Shown here piece after piece: positions 2,312 to 40,395 of a DNA stretch of 64,000 nucleotides. A program made the position numbers and the translations under genes. The notes beneath the pieces are model-generated. The model made no database searches and was not told the origin of the DNA. It was given only the letters and a program-made list of their open reading frames with translations. Source of the DNA: a phage. Location of the stretch: sequence record PZ445439.1, one strand, 5' to 3'. The stretch's first letter is position 1; each line of letters opens with the position of its first letter.

Positions 2312-3636
2312 TTGATTTCCTCTAAATCTTTAGTGTATTCTGTAACTACATCAGTAGTTTTCCAATATTCGTTTTCTTCTTTTTTAGCTTTAGCTTCTTC
2401 AGCAAGTTTCTTTGCTTCGTCGGAAGTCATATGAAAAATGTTCATTCCAACTAGTTTATCAACATAAGAAGAATACATATCAATTTTAGAAAGTTCTTCG
2501 GTCAGTTCTTTACGAGTTTTACCTTGTACAACAATTTCACCTGAAATTACTTTCTTAATGAAATGTGCCTTGGCAAAGGCTAAACGAAATGCCGATTCAG
2601 TTTCTTTGATTTTGTTATCAATTCGTTTTTGGACATAAGTTTTACGAACTTCAACGAAGTCTTTGATTAAATCAACTACGTTATCGTAAACTTGTAGTTT
2701 TCCTTTCTCATTAATAACCGTAATATTCTGAGAACGACGCTCAATCAACCCGAAGTCTTTCATAATTTTTGCATGGCGTTCTTCTTCATTATCGCTCAAA
2801 GAATATTCTTTGCGGAATTTAACTTTGAATCCAAAACCGTGCTCACCGCAAGCATCATCCCATGTAATGAAGCCTTTATCTTCAAGTGGGTCTAAGATTT
2901 TACTCACATAAGTTTCACGATCATACTTATATGGAATCTCAGTGATATGCATTTGAGTTCGTGAAGTAAACTTATATGTTCCACGAATTTCATACTGCCC
3001 ATCAATTTCAACAACTTCACCACGAAATTCTGGGAATTCTACCTTCGGTTTAGTTACTCTCTTTCCTTGAAGAGCTTGCAGTACAGCTTTCTTAACAGAA
3101 GAAACGCTATGAGGAAGAATGTAAGTTGCATAACCAGTTGCAATACCGGAAACGCCATTAAGAAGAACAGTAGGAATAATAGGCAAATAGAAAGCAGGCG
3201 GAATGTGTTCTTTATCTTGATGTACCGGAGCATATTCAGTATCTTTATATACGTTATAGAAATTTTTACTTACACGAGCAAAAATATAACGACTTGCTGC
3301 TGCTTTTTGGACGGTACGAGAACCAAAGTTTCCTTGACCATCTAACAGAGGAAAGTTATTATTCCAAGTGTTAGCCATCAAAGCACCTGCGTCTTGCGCA
3401 GAGTTTTCACCATGATGATATCCAAGGTCCGCTACACCACCTGCAATAGAAGCGAGTTTGTGAAACTTATCTTTATTTCCTCGTGCCAAATCAAGAGCTC
3501 GAGCAATAACAAATCGTTGAACTGGCTTAAATCCGTCAATCATATTTGGGATAGCACGATTTTCAACCGTGTACATAGCATAAGCCAATGCTTCATTATC
3601 AATGATACTTTTTAAATCGCGATTATTCAGTTGCAT
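2308..3636 (-). CDS. 52: DNA topoisomerase II medium subunit gp52 (GyrA-like)
   Basis: 442 aa (same as T4 gp52); GFKPVQRFV...ARALD and active-site-region motifs of type II topoisomerase A subunit. Confidence 0.9.
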   Translation of the reverse strand: MQLNNRDLKSIIDNEALAYAMYTVENRAIPNMIDGFKPVQRFVIARALDLARGNKDKFHKLASIAGGVADLGYHHGENSAQDAGALMANTWNNNFPLLDGQGNFGSRTVQKAAASRYIFARVSKNFYNVYKDTEYAPVHQDKEHIPPAFYLPIIPTVLLNGVSGIATGYATYILPHSVSSVKKAVLQALQGKRVTKPKVEFPEFRGEVVEIDGQYEIRGTYKFTSRTQMHITEIPYKYDRETYVSKILDPLEDKGFITWDDACGEHGFGFKVKFRKEYSLSDNEEERHAKIMKDFGLIERRSQNITVINEKGKLQVYDNVVDLIKDFVEVRKTYVQKRIDNKIKETESAFRLAFAKAHFIKKVISGEIVVQGKTRKELTEELSKIDMYSSYVDKLVGMNIFHMTSDEAKKLAEEAKAKKEENEYWKTTDVVTEYTKDLEEIK

Positions 3637-23547: not shown

Positions 23548-24066
23548 TTAATAACCTCGGTCTTGACGAGCGAAGTTTTCAGCATTTTTCAGATAATAAA
23601 GTTTAAATATTTCTTCAGCTGACATTCCAAGAGCAATGAATTTATTCATGAAAAAGTGAAATTGATCAATCAGTTCAAATTTAATTTCAAGTTGATCTTC
23701 AGGAGATAAGTCTTGAATTTTCTTGGATTGCATTTCAGAATAACGTTTCTTCCAAGGTTTCCATACGGCAGAAGCTTCTTTTTCACCATTACTCATACCA
23801 CCAAGAGAAGTATATAGCTCGCGAGTTTCATCTGCGATATAATCGTCTTGGTTTCGCAACCAAGCAAGAACTTCTCCTGCAGTTTCAAGTGAATCGGGAT
23901 GACGATTTGTTTCTGGTTTATCATTAGCCAAACGAATCTGTAAATGCCGCTGCATATCAAGCATAACCTGCAATGGGTCAATACTGTGCATAATATACTC
24001 AGCATATGCACGATTTGCTTTATCAACACCTTCGATCAAATGAGCACATTCATTAAAGTGAGCCAT
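23548..24066 (-). CDS. 56: dCTPase/dUTPase gp56 (dCTP pyrophosphatase)
   Basis: start at internal MAHFNECAHLIEG gives about 172 aa (T4 gp56 171 aa); MotA-box middle promoter upstream; ORF-track N-terminal extension is unlikely. Confidence 0.8.
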   Translation of the reverse strand: MAHFNECAHLIEGVDKANRAYAEYIMHSIDPLQVMLDMQRHLQIRLANDKPETNRHPDSLETAGEVLAWLRNQDDYIADETRELYTSLGGMSNGEKEASAVWKPWKKRYSEMQSKKIQDLSPEDQLEIKFELIDQFHFFMNKFIALGMSAEEIFKLYYLKNAENFARQDRGY

Positions 24067-24099
24067 TATTTTTCCTTTCAATTCATGGGTTAGTAGATT

Positions 24100-24126
24100 A
24101 ATTATACAATAAATATATAAAGCAAT
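24100..24126 (-). promoter_or_regulatory. MotA-dependent middle promoter for gene 56
   Basis: minus strand TTGCTTTA, 11-12 nt, TATAAT. Confidence 0.5.
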
Positions 24127-24137
24127 AAGGAGGACAT

Positions 24138-24338
24138 ATGGTACAAAAATTAATGGCACTTGTTAATGCCATAAAAGGTAATAAGAAACGTATAGCTTTT
24201 ACTATTTCTGCTATGGTAGGAATTTTACTCTGGAACTTTATTTTATCACCTGTTGCAATTGCACATGGTATTAATATTCCAGTAGTTACTCTTGATACAT
24301 TCGTAGATTTAGCATTTGCTTTAGTTGGGTTAATTTAA
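24138..24338 (+). CDS. hypothetical small hydrophobic protein on the opposite strand (uncertain)
   Basis: only plus-strand ORF with a strong SD (AAGGAGG, 4-nt spacer); two predicted hydrophobic segments; lies in the 56-61 intergenic gap. Confidence 0.3.
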   Translation: MVQKLMALVNAIKGNKKRIAFTISAMVGILLWNFILSPVAIAHGINIPVVTLDTFVDLAFALVGLI

Positions 24339-25363
24339 ATCTTAGCATATTTAGATAGCCGCATTTTAGCCATCAACCCCTGGGCAATATTATTTTTCAT
24401 ATATTCCATAATTTGTTCAGGGGTTGCACCTTCCTTTCTAATCATATCATTAACATCTTTTGATTTCCAGGGAGATTTATCCCAAAACATAACCCTTTCT
24501 CCTGCATCAACTAATTTAGTCATTCGTTTGATAGTGTCAGGGTGACGAGGTTCATTATCTAAAACCCACACTCGTCTATCTTTAAATGGAACAACTTCTA
24601 GGTCTAATTGACCACCCGTAATAGCTATACCATTTTCAATAAAAAGTGAATCTATAGGTCCTTCTAGAACATATACATCACCATCTTTAACTCGTTCGAC
24701 TCCATATATTTTTGTTGCCTCAGGATAAGCTTTGATGGTGATATATTTTTGAGGAGCATCTTTCTTTAATGCACGTCCTTGAAAAGACTCAGCTTTTCCA
24801 TTAGCATTATAAATTGGAATAACAAGACGAGGCTCAGAAATTTCCTTTTTGTATGTTCCCGGTGCTATGCTATTAACTAATTTAGGCCATTCGGTTGTAA
24901 ACCAAAGATATTTCCATTTATCCTTTGGAATACAACGAGCTTTTACATATTTTATAATTGGATGGTCTTCCGCCAGTTTATCTAATCTAACGCATGACGG
25001 AAGAGATTTAATTATTTTCTTCTCAGGTTGTTTAGGAAGTTCTTTAGGTTTTTCTACTGGACGACTTTTACCTTTTTCTTTTCTTATTTCAAAGATATAC
25101 TCACGATATAAATCAGGTTCAAACTCCTTTAAATATATTCCGATTGGTGCATGATAGTTACAGTTATAACAATGAATATTTCCTTCATTATTATCACCAT
25201 AATACCATCCACGAGCTTTATTCTGGTCGGTTTTTGAATCTCCACAAACAGGGCATCTAAACCGTAATTTAAAAGTTGAACTATTATTTACTTGTGTGAA
25301 TTTAGGTAAATGAGCTAATGCACGGTATGCAAACTCATTATCAATCCAAGGTATTGATGACAT
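24335..25363 (-). CDS. 61: DNA primase gp61
   Basis: 342 aa as in T4; N-terminal zinc ribbon CPVCGDS...CYNC and Toprim-like core. Confidence 0.9.
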   Translation of the reverse strand: MSSIPWIDNEFAYRALAHLPKFTQVNNSSTFKLRFRCPVCGDSKTDQNKARGWYYGDNNEGNIHCYNCNYHAPIGIYLKEFEPDLYREYIFEIRKEKGKSRPVEKPKELPKQPEKKIIKSLPSCVRLDKLAEDHPIIKYVKARCIPKDKWKYLWFTTEWPKLVNSIAPGTYKKEISEPRLVIPIYNANGKAESFQGRALKKDAPQKYITIKAYPEATKIYGVERVKDGDVYVLEGPIDSLFIENGIAITGGQLDLEVVPFKDRRVWVLDNEPRHPDTIKRMTKLVDAGERVMFWDKSPWKSKDVNDMIRKEGATPEQIMEYMKNNIAQGLMAKMRLSKYAKI

Positions 25364-25531
25364 TTTTACTCTTCTTTTTCTTTAGATTCCTCTTTTTTCT
25401 TTTTAGGAATCTGTTCAGGACCTTTATTTACTACAGCGCCTGACGTTGTTCCAGTAGAGATATTTTCAGGATTACCACCTGAATCTCCAGCGACCATATC
25501 TTCTTTGATAAATTCTTTATATGTTTTCATA

Positions 25532-25888
25532 TTAACCTCTATTCATAAAAGCATTAAAAATTTGGTCATCAATAGATGGTGCAGTAATATTTTCTGCATC
25601 ATTTAGCAAATCATTAATTTCATCAGATAGCATAACACATGTACCTTTATTTCCTGTAATTGTTACTGCACAATTACGAACGTTTTCTTTATCAAATTTT
25701 AGGTTAATATTTTCGTAGTGAAAATCCTTTAATGCCGAATATATCTTTAAAATAAAATTGTCTTTTACTACAATAAACCCAACCTCACTATTAAAACGTG
25801 GTTCATGGAAACTGTAATAAACCTTTTCATCTATAAAATCGTATGAAATTTTTTCCATTTTTAAATATGAAAATTCAGAACTATACAT
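25532..25888 (-). CDS. hypothetical protein (61.1/61.2 region), shares C-terminal module with next ORF
   Basis: 118 aa ending IDDQIFNAFMNRG; about 40 nt of near-identical DNA at the 3' end shared with 25890-26537. Confidence 0.4.
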   Translation of the reverse strand: MYSSEFSYLKMEKISYDFIDEKVYYSFHEPRFNSEVGFIVVKDNFILKIYSALKDFHYENINLKFDKENVRNCAVTITGNKGTCVMLSDEINDLLNDAENITAPSIDDQIFNAFMNRG

Positions 25889-25889
25889 A

Positions 25890-26537
25890 TTAACCTTTAT
25901 TCATAAAAGCATTAAAAATTTGATCGTCAATAGAAACTTTTACTTTAGGCTGTTCTTCAAACGGTAATTCATATCCACATATTACAATTTTGTGATCGAT
26001 ACCAAAATACACAGAAGCAATATGATTAATATTATTTTCAGTGAAATCTAAATCAACATCAATATCTTTTTGACTAACGCTCAAAGGATAATTAATACGA
26101 ATAATTCGATTATCTTTAACAAAGATTCCACCGACATACTCTGTGTTGCGTTTAAAGTTTACACGTTTCCTAAATGAAAAATATTCAGGTTCTTTATGAG
26201 CCCGACTCATAGGACACAATGAGTAGCTAGAATAAGAGATGTCAAATCCTACACCTTCAATATGAATATGAGCCAACGTGTCATGATTAAACCAATTATA
26301 ATCATATGCCAAATCCATTATATTGTAATATGTGAAAGGCACCGGATTAACATCATATGTTGTACCTTTAAAATCTGCCCAGGCAACGATTTCGTTATCT
26401 TTAACAATTACAAAAATTGTGCCAATAAGATATCCACGGTTATTTTCATCAGGTGTTATATTATAACATTGTGCATCAGGAAATTTACCGTATTTAAACG
26501 GTGGATTTTTGTGCATATAATAAATCATATTATTCAC
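25890..26537 (-). CDS. hypothetical protein (61.1/61.2 region)
   Basis: 215 aa ending IDDQIFNAFMNKG. Confidence 0.4.
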   Translation of the reverse strand: MNNMIYYMHKNPPFKYGKFPDAQCYNITPDENNRGYLIGTIFVIVKDNEIVAWADFKGTTYDVNPVPFTYYNIMDLAYDYNWFNHDTLAHIHIEGVGFDISYSSYSLCPMSRAHKEPEYFSFRKRVNFKRNTEYVGGIFVKDNRIIRINYPLSVSQKDIDVDLDFTENNINHIASVYFGIDHKIVICGYELPFEEQPKVKVSIDDQIFNAFMNKG

Positions 26538-26823
26538 CTGTGATTTCGGTTACGATATTTTTGTTATTAAAGTTTTTATCGCAATACAGAACATAATTAT
26601 ACTGCATTACACCACCAGACTTAAGTTGTTTTTGCACTTCAGCTTTCATTTCAGGACGATCGCGCTCAACGATATTCATAATATCTGCTTCAATTTGGGT
26701 TTCAACTTCAGTCTGATCCGCAGTCATAGACCATTCGCACAAATCTTTATCATAGCCTGCCATAGCAGGCTGAGCAGCACAAGAAGCCAAAGTAAAAATT
26801 GTAGCAAAAATAAATTTTTTCAT
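26530..26823 (-). CDS. sp: Spackle-like periplasmic protein (superinfection exclusion), tentative
   Basis: 97 aa with N-terminal signal peptide, at the 61.3 position between 61 and dmd. Confidence 0.5.
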   Translation of the reverse strand: MKKFIFATIFTLASCAAQPAMAGYDKDLCEWSMTADQTEVETQIEADIMNIVERDRPEMKAEVQKQLKSGGVMQYNYVLYCDKNFNNKNIVTEITGE

Positions 26824-26883
26824 GATAATCTCCTCAGTAGTTTATGTTTATATAGTATCTCAATTTCCAACAAAAGTAAACAG

Positions 26884-27183
26884 CTATTTTAAAACTTCTG
26901 CATAATCACATGTTACAAACTGTTTCTCTAGCTTGACGATTTTACGAAAGTATCTTTTGCATTGGCGAATCTGTCGCTTCGTGGGGCGAACAGCAAACTT
27001 AATAAATTCCACTCGACCAAATGGAGGACTTTCTTCTGCTGGAATATCTAACACCAATTCCCACGTATCTGCAATAAGTGCTTTGAATTGAGTATTTTTC
27101 CTGACGTTATACGGAGTAGGTTTAAATAAAACAATATGCATATTATCCTCGGCAATCCACTTCGCACACTTTCTTGTCATCAA
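26884..27183 (-). CDS. hypothetical basic protein adjacent to dmd (61.4 position)
   Basis: 99-aa ORF overlapping the dmd 3' end; basic composition. Confidence 0.35.
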   Translation of the reverse strand: MMTRKCAKWIAEDNMHIVLFKPTPYNVRKNTQFKALIADTWELVLDIPAEESPPFGRVEFIKFAVRPTKRQIRQCKRYFRKIVKLEKQFVTCDYAEVLK

Positions 27184-27325
27184 TGAAAGCTTTAACTAAT
27201 GCTTTATTAACTTCAGCATATTGAGTAGTAGCCCATTGAACGTCATCTTTCATCATTGTGATTTCTTTAGTAAACATGCTTTCATTCTTAAACCACCCCA
27301 TAAAAACTACCTTTACCAATTCCAT
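27143..27325 (-). CDS. dmd: Dmd, antitoxin against host RnlA/LsoA RNase toxins
   Basis: 60 aa, MELVKVVFMGWFKNESMF... consistent with recalled T4 Dmd; early promoter upstream. Confidence 0.7.
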   Translation of the reverse strand: MELVKVVFMGWFKNESMFTKEITMMKDDVQWATTQYAEVNKALVKAFIDDKKVCEVDCRG

Positions 27326-27339
27326 AACAATCTCCTCAT

Positions 27340-27380
27340 TTAACCAACAAGACTACTATACCATAGTCTTGTCAGCTTGT
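27340..27380 (-). promoter_or_regulatory. early promoter upstream of dmd
   Basis: minus strand GTTTAC ... TGG-TATAGT. Confidence 0.5.
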
Positions 27381-27383
27381 AAA

Positions 27384-28811
27384 CTAAAATTTTAATTCAT
27401 TTGCCAAAGCATCTAACTGAGCTCGAGTGGATTCATTTCTTTGATAGCGATTCTGCTCAGCCTGAATCTGTTGTGAACCTGCTACTTCACTCACTTCAGT
27501 TGGAGTAGAATCTTGTTCAATTTCTACCCATTTTTGATTTCCTTTTTGAACACCCATCAAAAACTTATTCCACTTATTCTTATCACCATATCGTGATTTG
27601 ATTTGCTTAATGAGTTGTTGTTCAGCAGCTGCTAGCTCCTCGGTTTCAATGACCGCAAGCATAAAATCAGCTGTTGCTGGAAGACCAGCAGATTCTGCAA
27701 TATCGCTCATGTTAACATCGGAAGAGTCCCAAGCTTGTTTACCAACCTGTGCTGCAGTCCAAAGAACAGTTTCGGTTTCAACAGCCAGAGCACGCAATTC
27801 CTCTGCGATAGCTTTAACAGTTGTGTAACTATTTTCTGAATAAACTCTAATGCGGCAAGATTTACAAATACCTAGATAGTCGACAATAATGATTGTTGGA
27901 ACAAAATTCTTCTTGAGCTTTAATTCATTTAAAAGTGATCGAAATGTATTAGCGTCTGCTCCACCAGTAGGATATTGCTTAACGATTAAACGACCAAGGG
28001 TAGATTTCTCACGCCATTTTTCCATTTTTCCTTTATACTCAGCGTAAGAAATATGCCCATCATCAATGTCATCAAGAGAAACATCGAGCATGTTAGCATC
28101 AATACGTTTAGCACAGACTTCTTCTGCCATTTCCATGGAGATATAAAGAACGTTATGACCAAGCTGCAAATAATCTGCTGCCAATGAACACAGACCTAAT
28201 GACTTACCAACGTTAACGCCAGCCATTAAAACGTTCAGTGTTCCAGTCTCAGCTCCACCTTTCGTAATTTTGTTTAGAATTCTGAGTTTAAATGGAACCT
28301 TACGAGCTTTATTCATATAAGATAGCCAACGCGCTTCATAGTCATCCATCCAATCATGACCAACGTAGCTATCAAATGAAATTGATAATGCTTGGCGCAT
28401 GATGTCAGGAATAGCACCTACATCTGGCATTTTCTTATTTCGTTTTTCCGGAGGAAGCTCAGCATTAGTTTGAATTTCGATTATTTTAGACGTAGCATTA
28501 AACATCGCCCTTTGCTGAACATATTTTTCTGTTTCTTTTACTAACCAGCTGTGGTCTTCTGGAGAATCAGCCAGTTTTGAAATAAGTGTTTTTACACCAG
28601 AATATTCTGTTTCAGTAAATGAACTATTTTCTAATGCAACATTTAACGCATTAATAGATGGAACGCTATGATACTCATTAACATGAGATTTAATTAATTT
28701 GAATGTATTTTTAGCTGGACCACTTTCAAAATATTCTGAATCCATATATGGCCAAACTTTTGAAAAATAAGCTTGATCAAATATGAGATGAGAAAGAATA
28801 ATTTCTACCAC
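27384..28811 (-). CDS. 41: replicative DNA helicase gp41 (DnaB family)
   Basis: 475 aa as in T4; Walker A GAGVNVGKS, RecA-like fold motifs. Confidence 0.9.
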   Translation of the reverse strand: MVEIILSHLIFDQAYFSKVWPYMDSEYFESGPAKNTFKLIKSHVNEYHSVPSINALNVALENSSFTETEYSGVKTLISKLADSPEDHSWLVKETEKYVQQRAMFNATSKIIEIQTNAELPPEKRNKKMPDVGAIPDIMRQALSISFDSYVGHDWMDDYEARWLSYMNKARKVPFKLRILNKITKGGAETGTLNVLMAGVNVGKSLGLCSLAADYLQLGHNVLYISMEMAEEVCAKRIDANMLDVSLDDIDDGHISYAEYKGKMEKWREKSTLGRLIVKQYPTGGADANTFRSLLNELKLKKNFVPTIIIVDYLGICKSCRIRVYSENSYTTVKAIAEELRALAVETETVLWTAAQVGKQAWDSSDVNMSDIAESAGLPATADFMLAVIETEELAAAEQQLIKQIKSRYGDKNKWNKFLMGVQKGNQKWVEIEQDSTPTEVSEVAGSQQIQAEQNRYQRNESTRAQLDALANELKF

Positions 28812-31990: not shown

Positions 31991-32143
31991 TTAAACCTCA
32001 ATTGATACATTCATATTTAACTTGTAACAGTAATAAACTCCAACCTAAAATAATAGTTGGAATCATAAGAGGAACCGTTACACTATAGTATATACTTATT
32101 ATAACCATCAAGATTAAAAGCAATGCTGCTATAATTTTGCTTT

Positions 32144-40142: not shown

Positions 40143-40395
40143 AATACACCTTTAGTCATAATAATCAGTAACAGTCCAAGCTTCATTTCTATTGGACATT
40201 ATTTTTGTATATTCTGCTTTAAATGCATTCCTAAGCATAGATTCAGTAACTATATGCTCTTCATTAGAAAAATTATTTCTCAGAATATATCGTTTTATTT
40301 CAGGAAAAGTTAATAAATGCTGTCCAGTTGAATATTCCATGTTTTTCCTCCATAGAGATTATACTCTAATAAATTAAAGCATAATCTCTTATAAA

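Follow-up and report, generated by a model that had tools for sequence, protein, structure and literature searches.

A conserved C-terminal tail in tandem AdfA paralogs of T4-like phages as a probable selected peptide, gene junction and cassette crossover site

Introduction

Two neighbouring genes of a phage genome (sequence record PZ445439.1) end in almost the same stretch of DNA and in the same short peptide, and the question raised by this locus is whether the coincidence reflects recombination between the genes, selection on the peptide that they have in common, or both. The genes lie in a stretch of 64,000 nucleotides, which was analysed as a whole and is hereafter called the window. In the initial annotation, they were described as open reading frames (ORFs) of 118 and 215 aa with unrelated bodies, and recent recombination or a conserved functional tail was offered as the explanation of their common 3' ends.

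The region between gp41 and gp61 has been termed an anti-TA island, and in T4 short homologies readily support recombination, through which segments of this same island are amplified or deleted (PMC9391042). AdfA, as summarised in PMC11825919 and PMC11257639, was described by LeRoux et al. (2022). In these two summaries, DarT1 is a DNA ADP-ribosyltransferase toxin, the AdfA of phage RB69 gains the ability to bind and neutralise DarT1 through the substitution R164H, and a His occupies the equivalent of position 164 in most T-even AdfAs (PMC11825919, PMC11257639). Deletion of adfA from T4 gave no DarTG1 phenotype (PMC11257639). Binding and neutralisation of DarT1 have been shown for RB69 AdfA(R164H) only.

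Gene order and the 49-nt direct repeat

The genes from 24335 to 28811 are all encoded on the minus strand, in the transcription order 41-dmd-61.4-sp-adfA-B-61.1-61, in which adfA (also denoted A) is the gene of the 215-aa ORF and B that of the 118-aa ORF. The pair had been placed downstream of the primase gene; in transcription order, it lies upstream of it. The features of the locus, in window coordinates, are listed below.

24335-25363, minus strand: gene 61, DNA primase, at the downstream end of the island
25366-25530, minus strand: gene 61.1 (54 aa), the downstream neighbour, with its start codon within repeat copy 1
25528-25576, minus strand: repeat copy 1, comprising the final 14 codons (SIDDQIFNAFMNRG) and the stop codon of B, a single nucleotide and the start codon (ATG) of 61.1
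25532-25888, minus strand: B, encoding a 118-aa single-domain AdfA paralog (RB32ORF033c-type, phrog_4122), assigned by BLASTP, Pfam and an AF2 model
25886-25934, minus strand: repeat copy 2, comprising the final 14 codons (SIDDQIFNAFMNKG) and the stop codon of adfA, a single nucleotide and the start codon (ATG) of B
25890-26528 (ORF extending to a GTG at 26537), minus strand: adfA, or gene 61.2 (A; Pfam PF23813, phrog_3781)
26530-26823, minus strand: sp (spackle), the upstream neighbour of adfA
26884-27141/27183, minus strand: 61.4, TifA family (DUF7279, E 1.7e-20), a known anti-toxin gene of the anti-TA island
27143-27325, minus strand: dmd (Pfam Dmd, E 1.6e-46), a known anti-toxin gene of the anti-TA island
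27384-28811, minus strand: gp41 helicase

A repeat search of the window returned a direct repeat of 49 nt at 25528-25576 and 25886-25934, with a spacing of 358 nt and identity at 46 of the 49 positions (94%). Each copy encodes SIDDQIFNAFMN(R/K)G, followed by the stop codon and the ATG of the next gene, with TAATATG at this transition in both copies, and the ORFs end in ...PSIDDQIFNAFMNRG (118 aa) and ...VSIDDQIFNAFMNKG (215 aa); the near-identity of the 3' ends and the common 13-residue tail are thereby borne out. Among the three differences between the window copies, two are synonymous and one is a replacement (AGA/AAA). The 24-mer ATTCATAAAAGCATTAAAAATTTG, for which shuffled sequences give an expectation of 0, occurs exactly twice, as had been noticed, at positions 25541 and 25899, about 8 nt away from those originally quoted (~25533 and ~25891). 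No third copy of the tail was found in the window, either at the DNA level with three mismatches allowed or in a six-frame protein search, and repeat copy 1 is nucleotide-identical to the tail of T4 gp61.2.

Such a repeat could be a duplication artefact of sequencing or assembly, and the related record phiD1 indeed shows Ns and an odd partial extra copy at the locus (this extra copy of B was left out as evidence because of the Ns in that stretch). However, more than 150 independent genomes, those of RB51, RB68, wV7 and RB18 among them, show the identical arrangement; in addition, three mismatches separate the copies, and each copy is read in frame as part of a different, well-conserved ORF. 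The artefact reading is refuted by the recurrence of the arrangement in independent assemblies, and its probability is vanishingly small. Likewise, the concern that the tail might be absent from related genomes is answered by 152 records that cover at least 80% of the 1.6-kb region around the repeat and by 157 that carry the junction between A and B. Over this 1.6 kb, the window matches Escherichia phage FelixPlatter at 100% identity, and its identity with RB51, RB68, wV7 and many further Tequatroviruses is 97-99%.

AdfA and a single-domain paralog

Judged by its sequence, the 215-aa ORF is the ortholog of AdfA/gp61.2. It matches Pfam PF23813 (Anti-DarT factor A) over the full length of the profile (positions 1-211, E 1.4e-136, 453 bits), belongs to phrog_3781, is 74% identical to T4 gp61.2 and has the two-domain architecture of about 208-216 aa; its true start is likely the ATG at 26528 (212 aa) and not the GTG at 26537. 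It also agrees with AdfA in its position after sp and in carrying the His of the DarT1-binding RB69 allele: the window protein has H169, within NINHIAS as against the RB69-type NINRIAS, at the equivalent of RB69 residue 164 (R164 being numbered from MHKN). The same position after sp was found in the window, in T4, T2, RB18 and phiE142 and at Dhaka-type and metagenomic loci, and a tail-bearing gene directly follows sp in every lineage examined.

The 118-aa ORF is, by the same kind of comparison, a one-domain paralog of the C-terminal half of AdfA, and the two bodies, which had been called unrelated, are homologous: BLASTP aligns the ORF with AdfA residues 116-215 at 36% identity over ~100 aa (E 5e-10). 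The Pfam AdfA profile likewise scores 31.9 bits (cut-off 27), over profile positions 113-211 only, that is, the C-terminal half. The two proteins have the C-terminal domain and the tail in common, and the paralog has a single domain where AdfA has two; being single-domain, it is filed as a paralog or variant and not as AdfA proper. An Asn is aligned with His/Arg-164 of AdfA. Annotators of RB51 and RB18 in GenBank had already noted the protein as 'similar to gp61.2', and B is present at 80% identity or above in ~294 phage records. Phage T2, described as being without an adfA homolog (PMC11825919), carries B at the same site, directly after sp.

The AF2 models, which are of monomers and rest on alignments of 26-42 sequences, predict that A consists of two beta5-alpha domains in tandem, joined through a linker to a helix that forms the C-terminal tail (mean pLDDT 74.9), with values of ~51 for the linker (residues 183-199) and ~69 for the tail helix (200-209). 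For B, one beta5-alpha-beta-alpha domain is predicted, followed by a short linker and the same tail, with pLDDT above 90 in the body, below 50 in the linker (100-105) and ~50 in the tail helix (106-115). Low values in the tail may reflect these shallow alignments instead of flexibility. Moreover, a profile of B and the third family described below can be aligned in register with the N-terminal half of AdfA (hhalign E 3e-4), whose domain has the same predicted topology and no tail; by this faint profile match, AdfA looks like the product of an internal duplication. A search of the PDB returned no solved structure of AdfA.

Breadth of the family and selection on the tail peptide

The tail is not peculiar to the two genes of the window. 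A tblastn search with the last 22 residues returned 873 places in 706 phage records, one or two per genome and always at this locus, and the same tail ends three body families, namely A (~210 aa), B (~118 aa) and C (~146 aa; phrog_8539), the last of which occurs in Dhaka- and VR5-type phages; in some genomes, C precedes a divergent form of B, denoted B'. The bodies are 18-34% identical between families and have in common the strand motif G-[FY]-[IF]-x-V-x-D-x-x-I. In an 11-sequence alignment, nine of the 14 invariant columns fall in the tail block DDQIFNAFM, and across 42 sequences no variation is seen at Q, I, F, F and M. The family consensus of the tail reads [S/A][I/V]DDQIFNAFM[N/K][R/K][G/D]; even the most divergent members keep it with single substitutions (e.g., DQQIFNAFM, IFNSFM, IFKAFM), and linker length varies by up to nine residues between members.

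The Pfam AdfA profile takes in only part of this family, as the C and B' proteins fall below its threshold and match it through the tail alone. A profile search of 1.84 billion representative proteins gave only nine clusters, and by these searches the family is phage-only and confined to T4-like coliphages. Two non-phage matches proved to be BspA-type LRR proteins with an hhalign probability of 4.5% and were rejected as false positives. Similarly, fold matches in BFVD were restricted to A, B' and C family members, the fold searches yielded no informative distant relative, and a PDB sequence search with the tail region and the family profile gave Sfi1p as its sole match (E 1.2), which is attributed to chance.

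Conservation of the tail across A, B and C, seen on alignment with homologs from other T-even phages, can be examined at the level of codons. Among 15 distinct tail DNAs, synonymous variants occur at six of the nine core codons of DDQIFNAFM (GAT/GAC twice, CAA/CAG, ATT/ATA, GCT/GCA/GCC and TTT/TTC), and replacements occur at none. In both L009 and L032, the tails within a single genome have 7-8 mismatches in 42 nt, and yet the motif is largely kept; the frameshifted B' copy of L032 has an M-to-L change and reads IFNAFLKRGE. In the tail DNAs that have diverged at 4-8 of 42 positions, no intact gene has a replacement in the nine-residue core. Because codons vary across genera and the core residues do not change, comparison of these DNAs shows purifying selection acting on the amino-acid sequence of the tail itself.

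It might be argued that the tail is no more than a trace left by recent gene conversion or partial duplication and that its peptide is functionless, for the tails are 93% identical in DNA against 44% for the bodies, synonymous sites are identical in excess, and tail-to-tail crossovers are evident, as set out in the next section. However, the motif persists in tails whose DNA differs at 4-8 of 42 positions, without core replacement in intact genes, and it stands at the end of three body families in ~700 phage records. The synonymous-only pattern rules out a mere conversion footprint, which is accordingly regarded as very improbable.

Tail-to-tail recombination and cassette gain and loss

Selection on the peptide is not the whole of the matter, since the near-identity of the two window tails in DNA exceeds, by comparison of their codons, what peptide constraint leads one to expect. 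In a codon alignment, the window bodies are 44% identical in nucleotides and 28% in amino acids, as against 93% nucleotide identity in the tail. The same codon is used at six of 23 identical degenerate residues in the body and at ten of 12 in the tail, where codon usage predicts 6.6 (P = 0.035). Between paralogous tails of one genome, 1-3 nt differ in Tequatroviruses, whose A/B pairs are non-independent observations, and 2 nt in L010, whereas orthologous tails differ between genera by 4-7 nt. Near-identical paired tails are not universal, those of L009 and L032 having diverged.

The crossovers themselves can be traced through diagnostic codons. In the window, the internal tail reads GAC GAT...AAA GGT|ATG-B and the terminal tail GAT GAC...AGA GGT|ATG-61.1; in RB18, which carries A and B, the corresponding endings are ...AGA GAT|B and ...AGA GGT|61.1. 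Phage UKE3-1, which has only a window-type A, combines an A-type 5' half (GAC GAT) with a B-type 3' half (AGA GGT TAA; TATGAAAACA), followed by 61.1. Likewise, T4, also an A-only phage, has an RB18-type A body with the terminal-type ending when compared with RB18. These hybrid tails of UKE3-1 and T4 are as predicted by a crossover in the 24-nt identical core that removes exactly 358 nt. The stretch between sp and B in T2, which carries B only, contains TTAGAGGTTAGTATG, a sequence that looks like a tail end and hints that A was once deleted there.

Arrangements with A only, B only and both are all common. The junction between A and B was found in 157 records and that between sp and B in 141, and A was found in 486, so that ~330 A-bearing records without the A|B junction are A-only, all of these counts including redundant records. 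Unequal homologous recombination between the tails would delete, or reciprocally duplicate, exactly one 358-nt cassette, and tail-to-tail crossover would yield the A+B, A-only and B-only arrangements found in nature. Genome comparison shows the Tequatrovirus tails to be crossover points, their two copies being kept near-identical in DNA, and the exchange may have run as deletion from A+B or as assembly from single-cassette phages.

The two readings first offered for the locus are hence both partly supported and mutually compatible: recombination by tail synonymous sites that are more alike than the bodies and by the chimeric tails of A-only genomes, and a functional tail by a peptide that is kept across genera as its codons change and that ends three body families. 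The explanation preferred as a whole, in which the genes are phage-only AdfA paralogs and the tail is at once under peptide selection, a gene junction and a cassette crossover site, is considered probable.

The gene junction and possible regulatory signals

The tail DNA also carries the signals of a gene boundary. In its last two codons, copy 1 contains the Shine-Dalgarno (SD) sequence GAGG and copy 2 the SD-like AAAGG, which places GAGG or AAGG 5 nt before the next ATG, and the two window junctions, AGAGGTTAATATG and AAAGGTTAATATG, have both the SD spacing of ~5-9 nt from the ATG and the adjacent stop codon of coupled genes. The layout of stop codon, one nucleotide and ATG recurs at all loci examined except L031 (TAA-AGAGGCTAATG), and the sp/adfA junction GGTGAATAATATG has it too. 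The last two codons, the stop codon, the single base and the ATG likely form a putative ribosome-binding and translational-coupling junction for the next gene.

These signals invite another explanation, namely that the tail DNA is conserved as a MotA-type middle promoter together with the SD of the downstream gene, the peptide not being selected. A T4 middle promoter consists of a MotA box, TGCTT(T/C)A, a spacer of 11-13 bp and a TAnnnT -10 element. Both window tails contain TGCTTTT-N12-TAATAT, a near match to this layout, although the last position of the box is T where the consensus has A, and a relaxed MotA pattern is enriched in the window, with 28 matches against 8.0 expected. The synonymous differences between the window tails lie upstream of the box-like sequence, the AGA/AAA replacement falls in the spacer, and GAGG stands 5 nt before the next ATG, with stop+1nt+ATG kept at nearly all loci; the SD, however, accounts for the last two codons only. 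Other genera encode the Ala as GCA or GCC, which destroys the TGCTT core and leaves the peptide unchanged, and the T4 records examined have no promoter annotated here. Since the core of the MotA box is lost in other genera, family-wide conservation is not explained by a MotA promoter, and conservation on this ground instead of peptide selection is improbable; a MotA middle promoter at the tails is a possibility for Tequatroviruses only. No terminator-like hairpin was found in 24300-27500, and neither repeat overlaps with a sigma-70-like site on the minus strand.

Possible roles of the tail

If the peptide is selected, it presumably acts in some way on behalf of bodies that otherwise diverge. 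One proposal is that the tail forms a short amphipathic helix on a flexible tether of variable length, which would dock onto a partner common to all family members and leave target specificity to the fast-evolving body; candidates for the partner would include a surface conserved among DarT-type toxins and proteins of the phage or the host. An invariant motif, a linker variable in sequence and length and low model confidence together point towards such a tethered docking helix. Docking to a common partner is ranked as the most likely role, though tentatively, at somewhat short of an even chance.

Alternatively, the tail could be an integral structural helix packed at the C-terminus on the beta-sheet of the domain, with no separate partner, a reading that is ranked second and deemed possible but on balance unlikely. 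In fast-evolving phage proteins, it is often the structural core that is best conserved, and a helix packed on the domain would be conserved too; the tail is helical in both AF2 models (A and B), presents a broad hydrophobic face (I, F, A, F and M) and reaches a pLDDT of ~69 in the model of A. In the well-predicted model of B, however, the helix stands at ~50 against more than 90 for the body, and a low-confidence linker of variable length (indels of up to 9 aa) parts the tail from the body. Moreover, the remaining fold tolerates replacement of 70-80% of its sequence and the tail is nearly invariant, and the N-terminal domain of AdfA is predicted to adopt the same topology without a tail.

As a third reading, the tail could be a signal for degradation or localisation, such as a degron or a protease or chaperone tag, and not a handle for target binding. 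A conserved, exposed C-terminal peptide on otherwise divergent proteins would suit such a signal, and the timed removal of early anti-defence proteins is conceivable on general grounds. To our knowledge, however, the tail is unlike the C-terminal degrons of E. coli, e.g., those of the ssrA type (...LAA), and the PDB sequence search returned nothing related, so that this role is held to have only a slight chance. Mimicry of clamp-binding motifs or SSB tails (QxxxxF-like and acidic DDxIF patterns) was likewise considered and set aside as unsupported: the motif is not at the extreme C-terminus, and a six-frame search found no motif common to the tail and other proteins of the window.

The docking proposal can be carried further. 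The invariant tail may be a universal docking handle of hypervariable toxin inhibitors (A, B and C), which would engage one constant partner, either the conserved catalytic core of DarT-like ADP-ribosyltransferases or, at the ssDNA on which DarT acts, a factor of the replisome or the host; diversification would fit the bodies to different toxin variants, and the DNA that encodes the handle would double as a recombination site at which cassettes are stacked, swapped or dropped. This extended version is speculative and rather doubtful; if true, B and C, including the B of T2, would be new anti-defence factors, possibly directed against the DarTG2-type systems that T-even phages resist.

Significance and comparison with known systems

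The finding is largely explained by known biology, in that tandem AdfA paralogs lie in a recombination-prone anti-defence island. A C-terminal motif that unites three body families, including proteins unclassified by Pfam and the gene of T2, appears to be undescribed, as do the evidence that the tail peptide itself is selected and the role of its coding sequence as a crossover point for cassette gain and loss; neither the tail motif nor the name RB32ORF033c was found in the literature searched, with the original AdfA paper outside the search. Few phage proteins are known to counter a toxin that ADP-ribosylates DNA, AdfA being one of them, and mutagenesis and pull-down experiments would naturally begin with an invariant tail on fast-evolving bodies. 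With the single-domain B and C forms and the gene of T2, the family has about twice the breadth given by Pfam, and B and C become candidate inhibitors of defences for which phage counter-measures are still missing. Finally, a selected coding motif that doubles as a built-in recombination site would give rise to presence/absence variation of anti-defence genes in natural phages.

Other short boundary sequences of T4-type phages offer a comparison. Arbiol, Comeau and Krisch reportedly described, in 2010, mobile regulatory cassettes known as PeSLs, which resemble the AdfA tail repeats as short repeated sequences at gene boundaries with modular shuffling in hyperplastic regions. PeSLs are, however, intergenic and consist of an early sigma-70-like promoter and a stem-loop, whereas the AdfA repeats are coding and coincide on the coding strand with neither such a promoter nor a hairpin; they are therefore not PeSLs. 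Similarly, Tetart et al. are said to have described, in 1998, recombination between conserved motifs, the 'His boxes', that flank variable segments of T-even tail-fibre adhesins. Both the His boxes and the AdfA tails are short conserved coding motifs that serve as crossover points for shuffling variable modules between phages; the AdfA tails differ in locus and protein class and in lying at the extreme C-terminus, where they include the junction with the next gene.

The amplification and deletion of dmd-tifA in T4 (Srikant et al. 2022, PMC9391042) involve the same island and likewise proceed between short direct repeats with one hybrid repeat left behind. The repeats used there are chance microhomologies of 6-10 bp in laboratory events, whereas the AdfA tails are ~49 nt long, coding and kept by selection, and are found in fixed natural haplotypes.

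C-Terminal Modules of the Island

Within the 156-aa family phrog_2086, the match to the product of gene 61.1 (54 aa; window 25366-25530) is confined to the 46 C-terminal residues, and the same module, EDMVAGDSGG...GAVVNKGPEQIPxKK, ends a 164-aa ORF located before primase in RB69-like phages (2552-3046 of the related locus L017). The gp61.1 module is the island's second instance of a short C-terminal module common to proteins differing in length.

In two metagenomic relatives, the tail with the core DDQIFNAFM is altered. Its end, AGAGGCTAA, is duplicated in tandem ahead of the next ATG in one of them (L031, 2870-2890); in another (L032, 2937-3294), a frameshift splits the B'-type gene, a divergent form of the 118-aa gene, and the tail is relaxed to IFNAFLKRGE, both of which are consistent with a pseudogene. 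In Yersinia phage phiD1 (L003; HE956711), positions 2900-3130 hold Ns, and between two full copies of the 118-aa gene lies an additional incomplete one, tail included. Either the assembly is faulty here or amplification at the tail repeats produced a mixed population; the stretch was left out of the evidence.

Start and Small Insertion of adfA

Two start positions are available for adfA (window 26528-26537):
26537, minus strand, GTG, from the mechanical ORF call
26528, minus strand, ATG, as annotated in relatives

The latter ATG and the sp stop codon together form GGTGAATAATATG, and this arrangement of a stop codon, one nucleotide and ATG is the one found at both window tails. Relative to RB51 (L001) and T4, AdfA (25890-26528) additionally carries a two-residue insertion (HIHIEG, where they have HIEG) that resembles a small duplication of codons in tandem.

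Neighboring Genes and Promoter Patterns

In Dhaka/VR5-type phages, the tail-bearing C gene (the ~146-aa form) is directly followed by a gene whose 73-aa product contains the motif RPTKRQIRxxKK:
L014 2065-2286, gene for the 73-aa protein, also in L018, L019, L021, L009 and L010

The same motif is present in 61.4/TifA (DUF7279); therefore, these islands may contain a TifA-like paralog twice.

Between gp56 and primase (window 23548-24338), the dam methyltransferase gene is absent, whereas T4 and T2 have dam there; as in RB51, the sole ORF of this interval is small:
24138-24338, plus strand, dam.1/RB32ORF030w-like ORF

Across the whole window, the relaxed MotA-type middle-promoter pattern TGCTTY-N12-14-TANNNT has 28 matches versus 8.0 expected, for example:
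32098-32122, relaxed MotA-type match
40358-40381, relaxed MotA-type match
24101-24124, relaxed MotA-type match

Canonical TGCTT(T/C)A is present in most of the 28 matches, and these canonical ones are probably real middle promoters.
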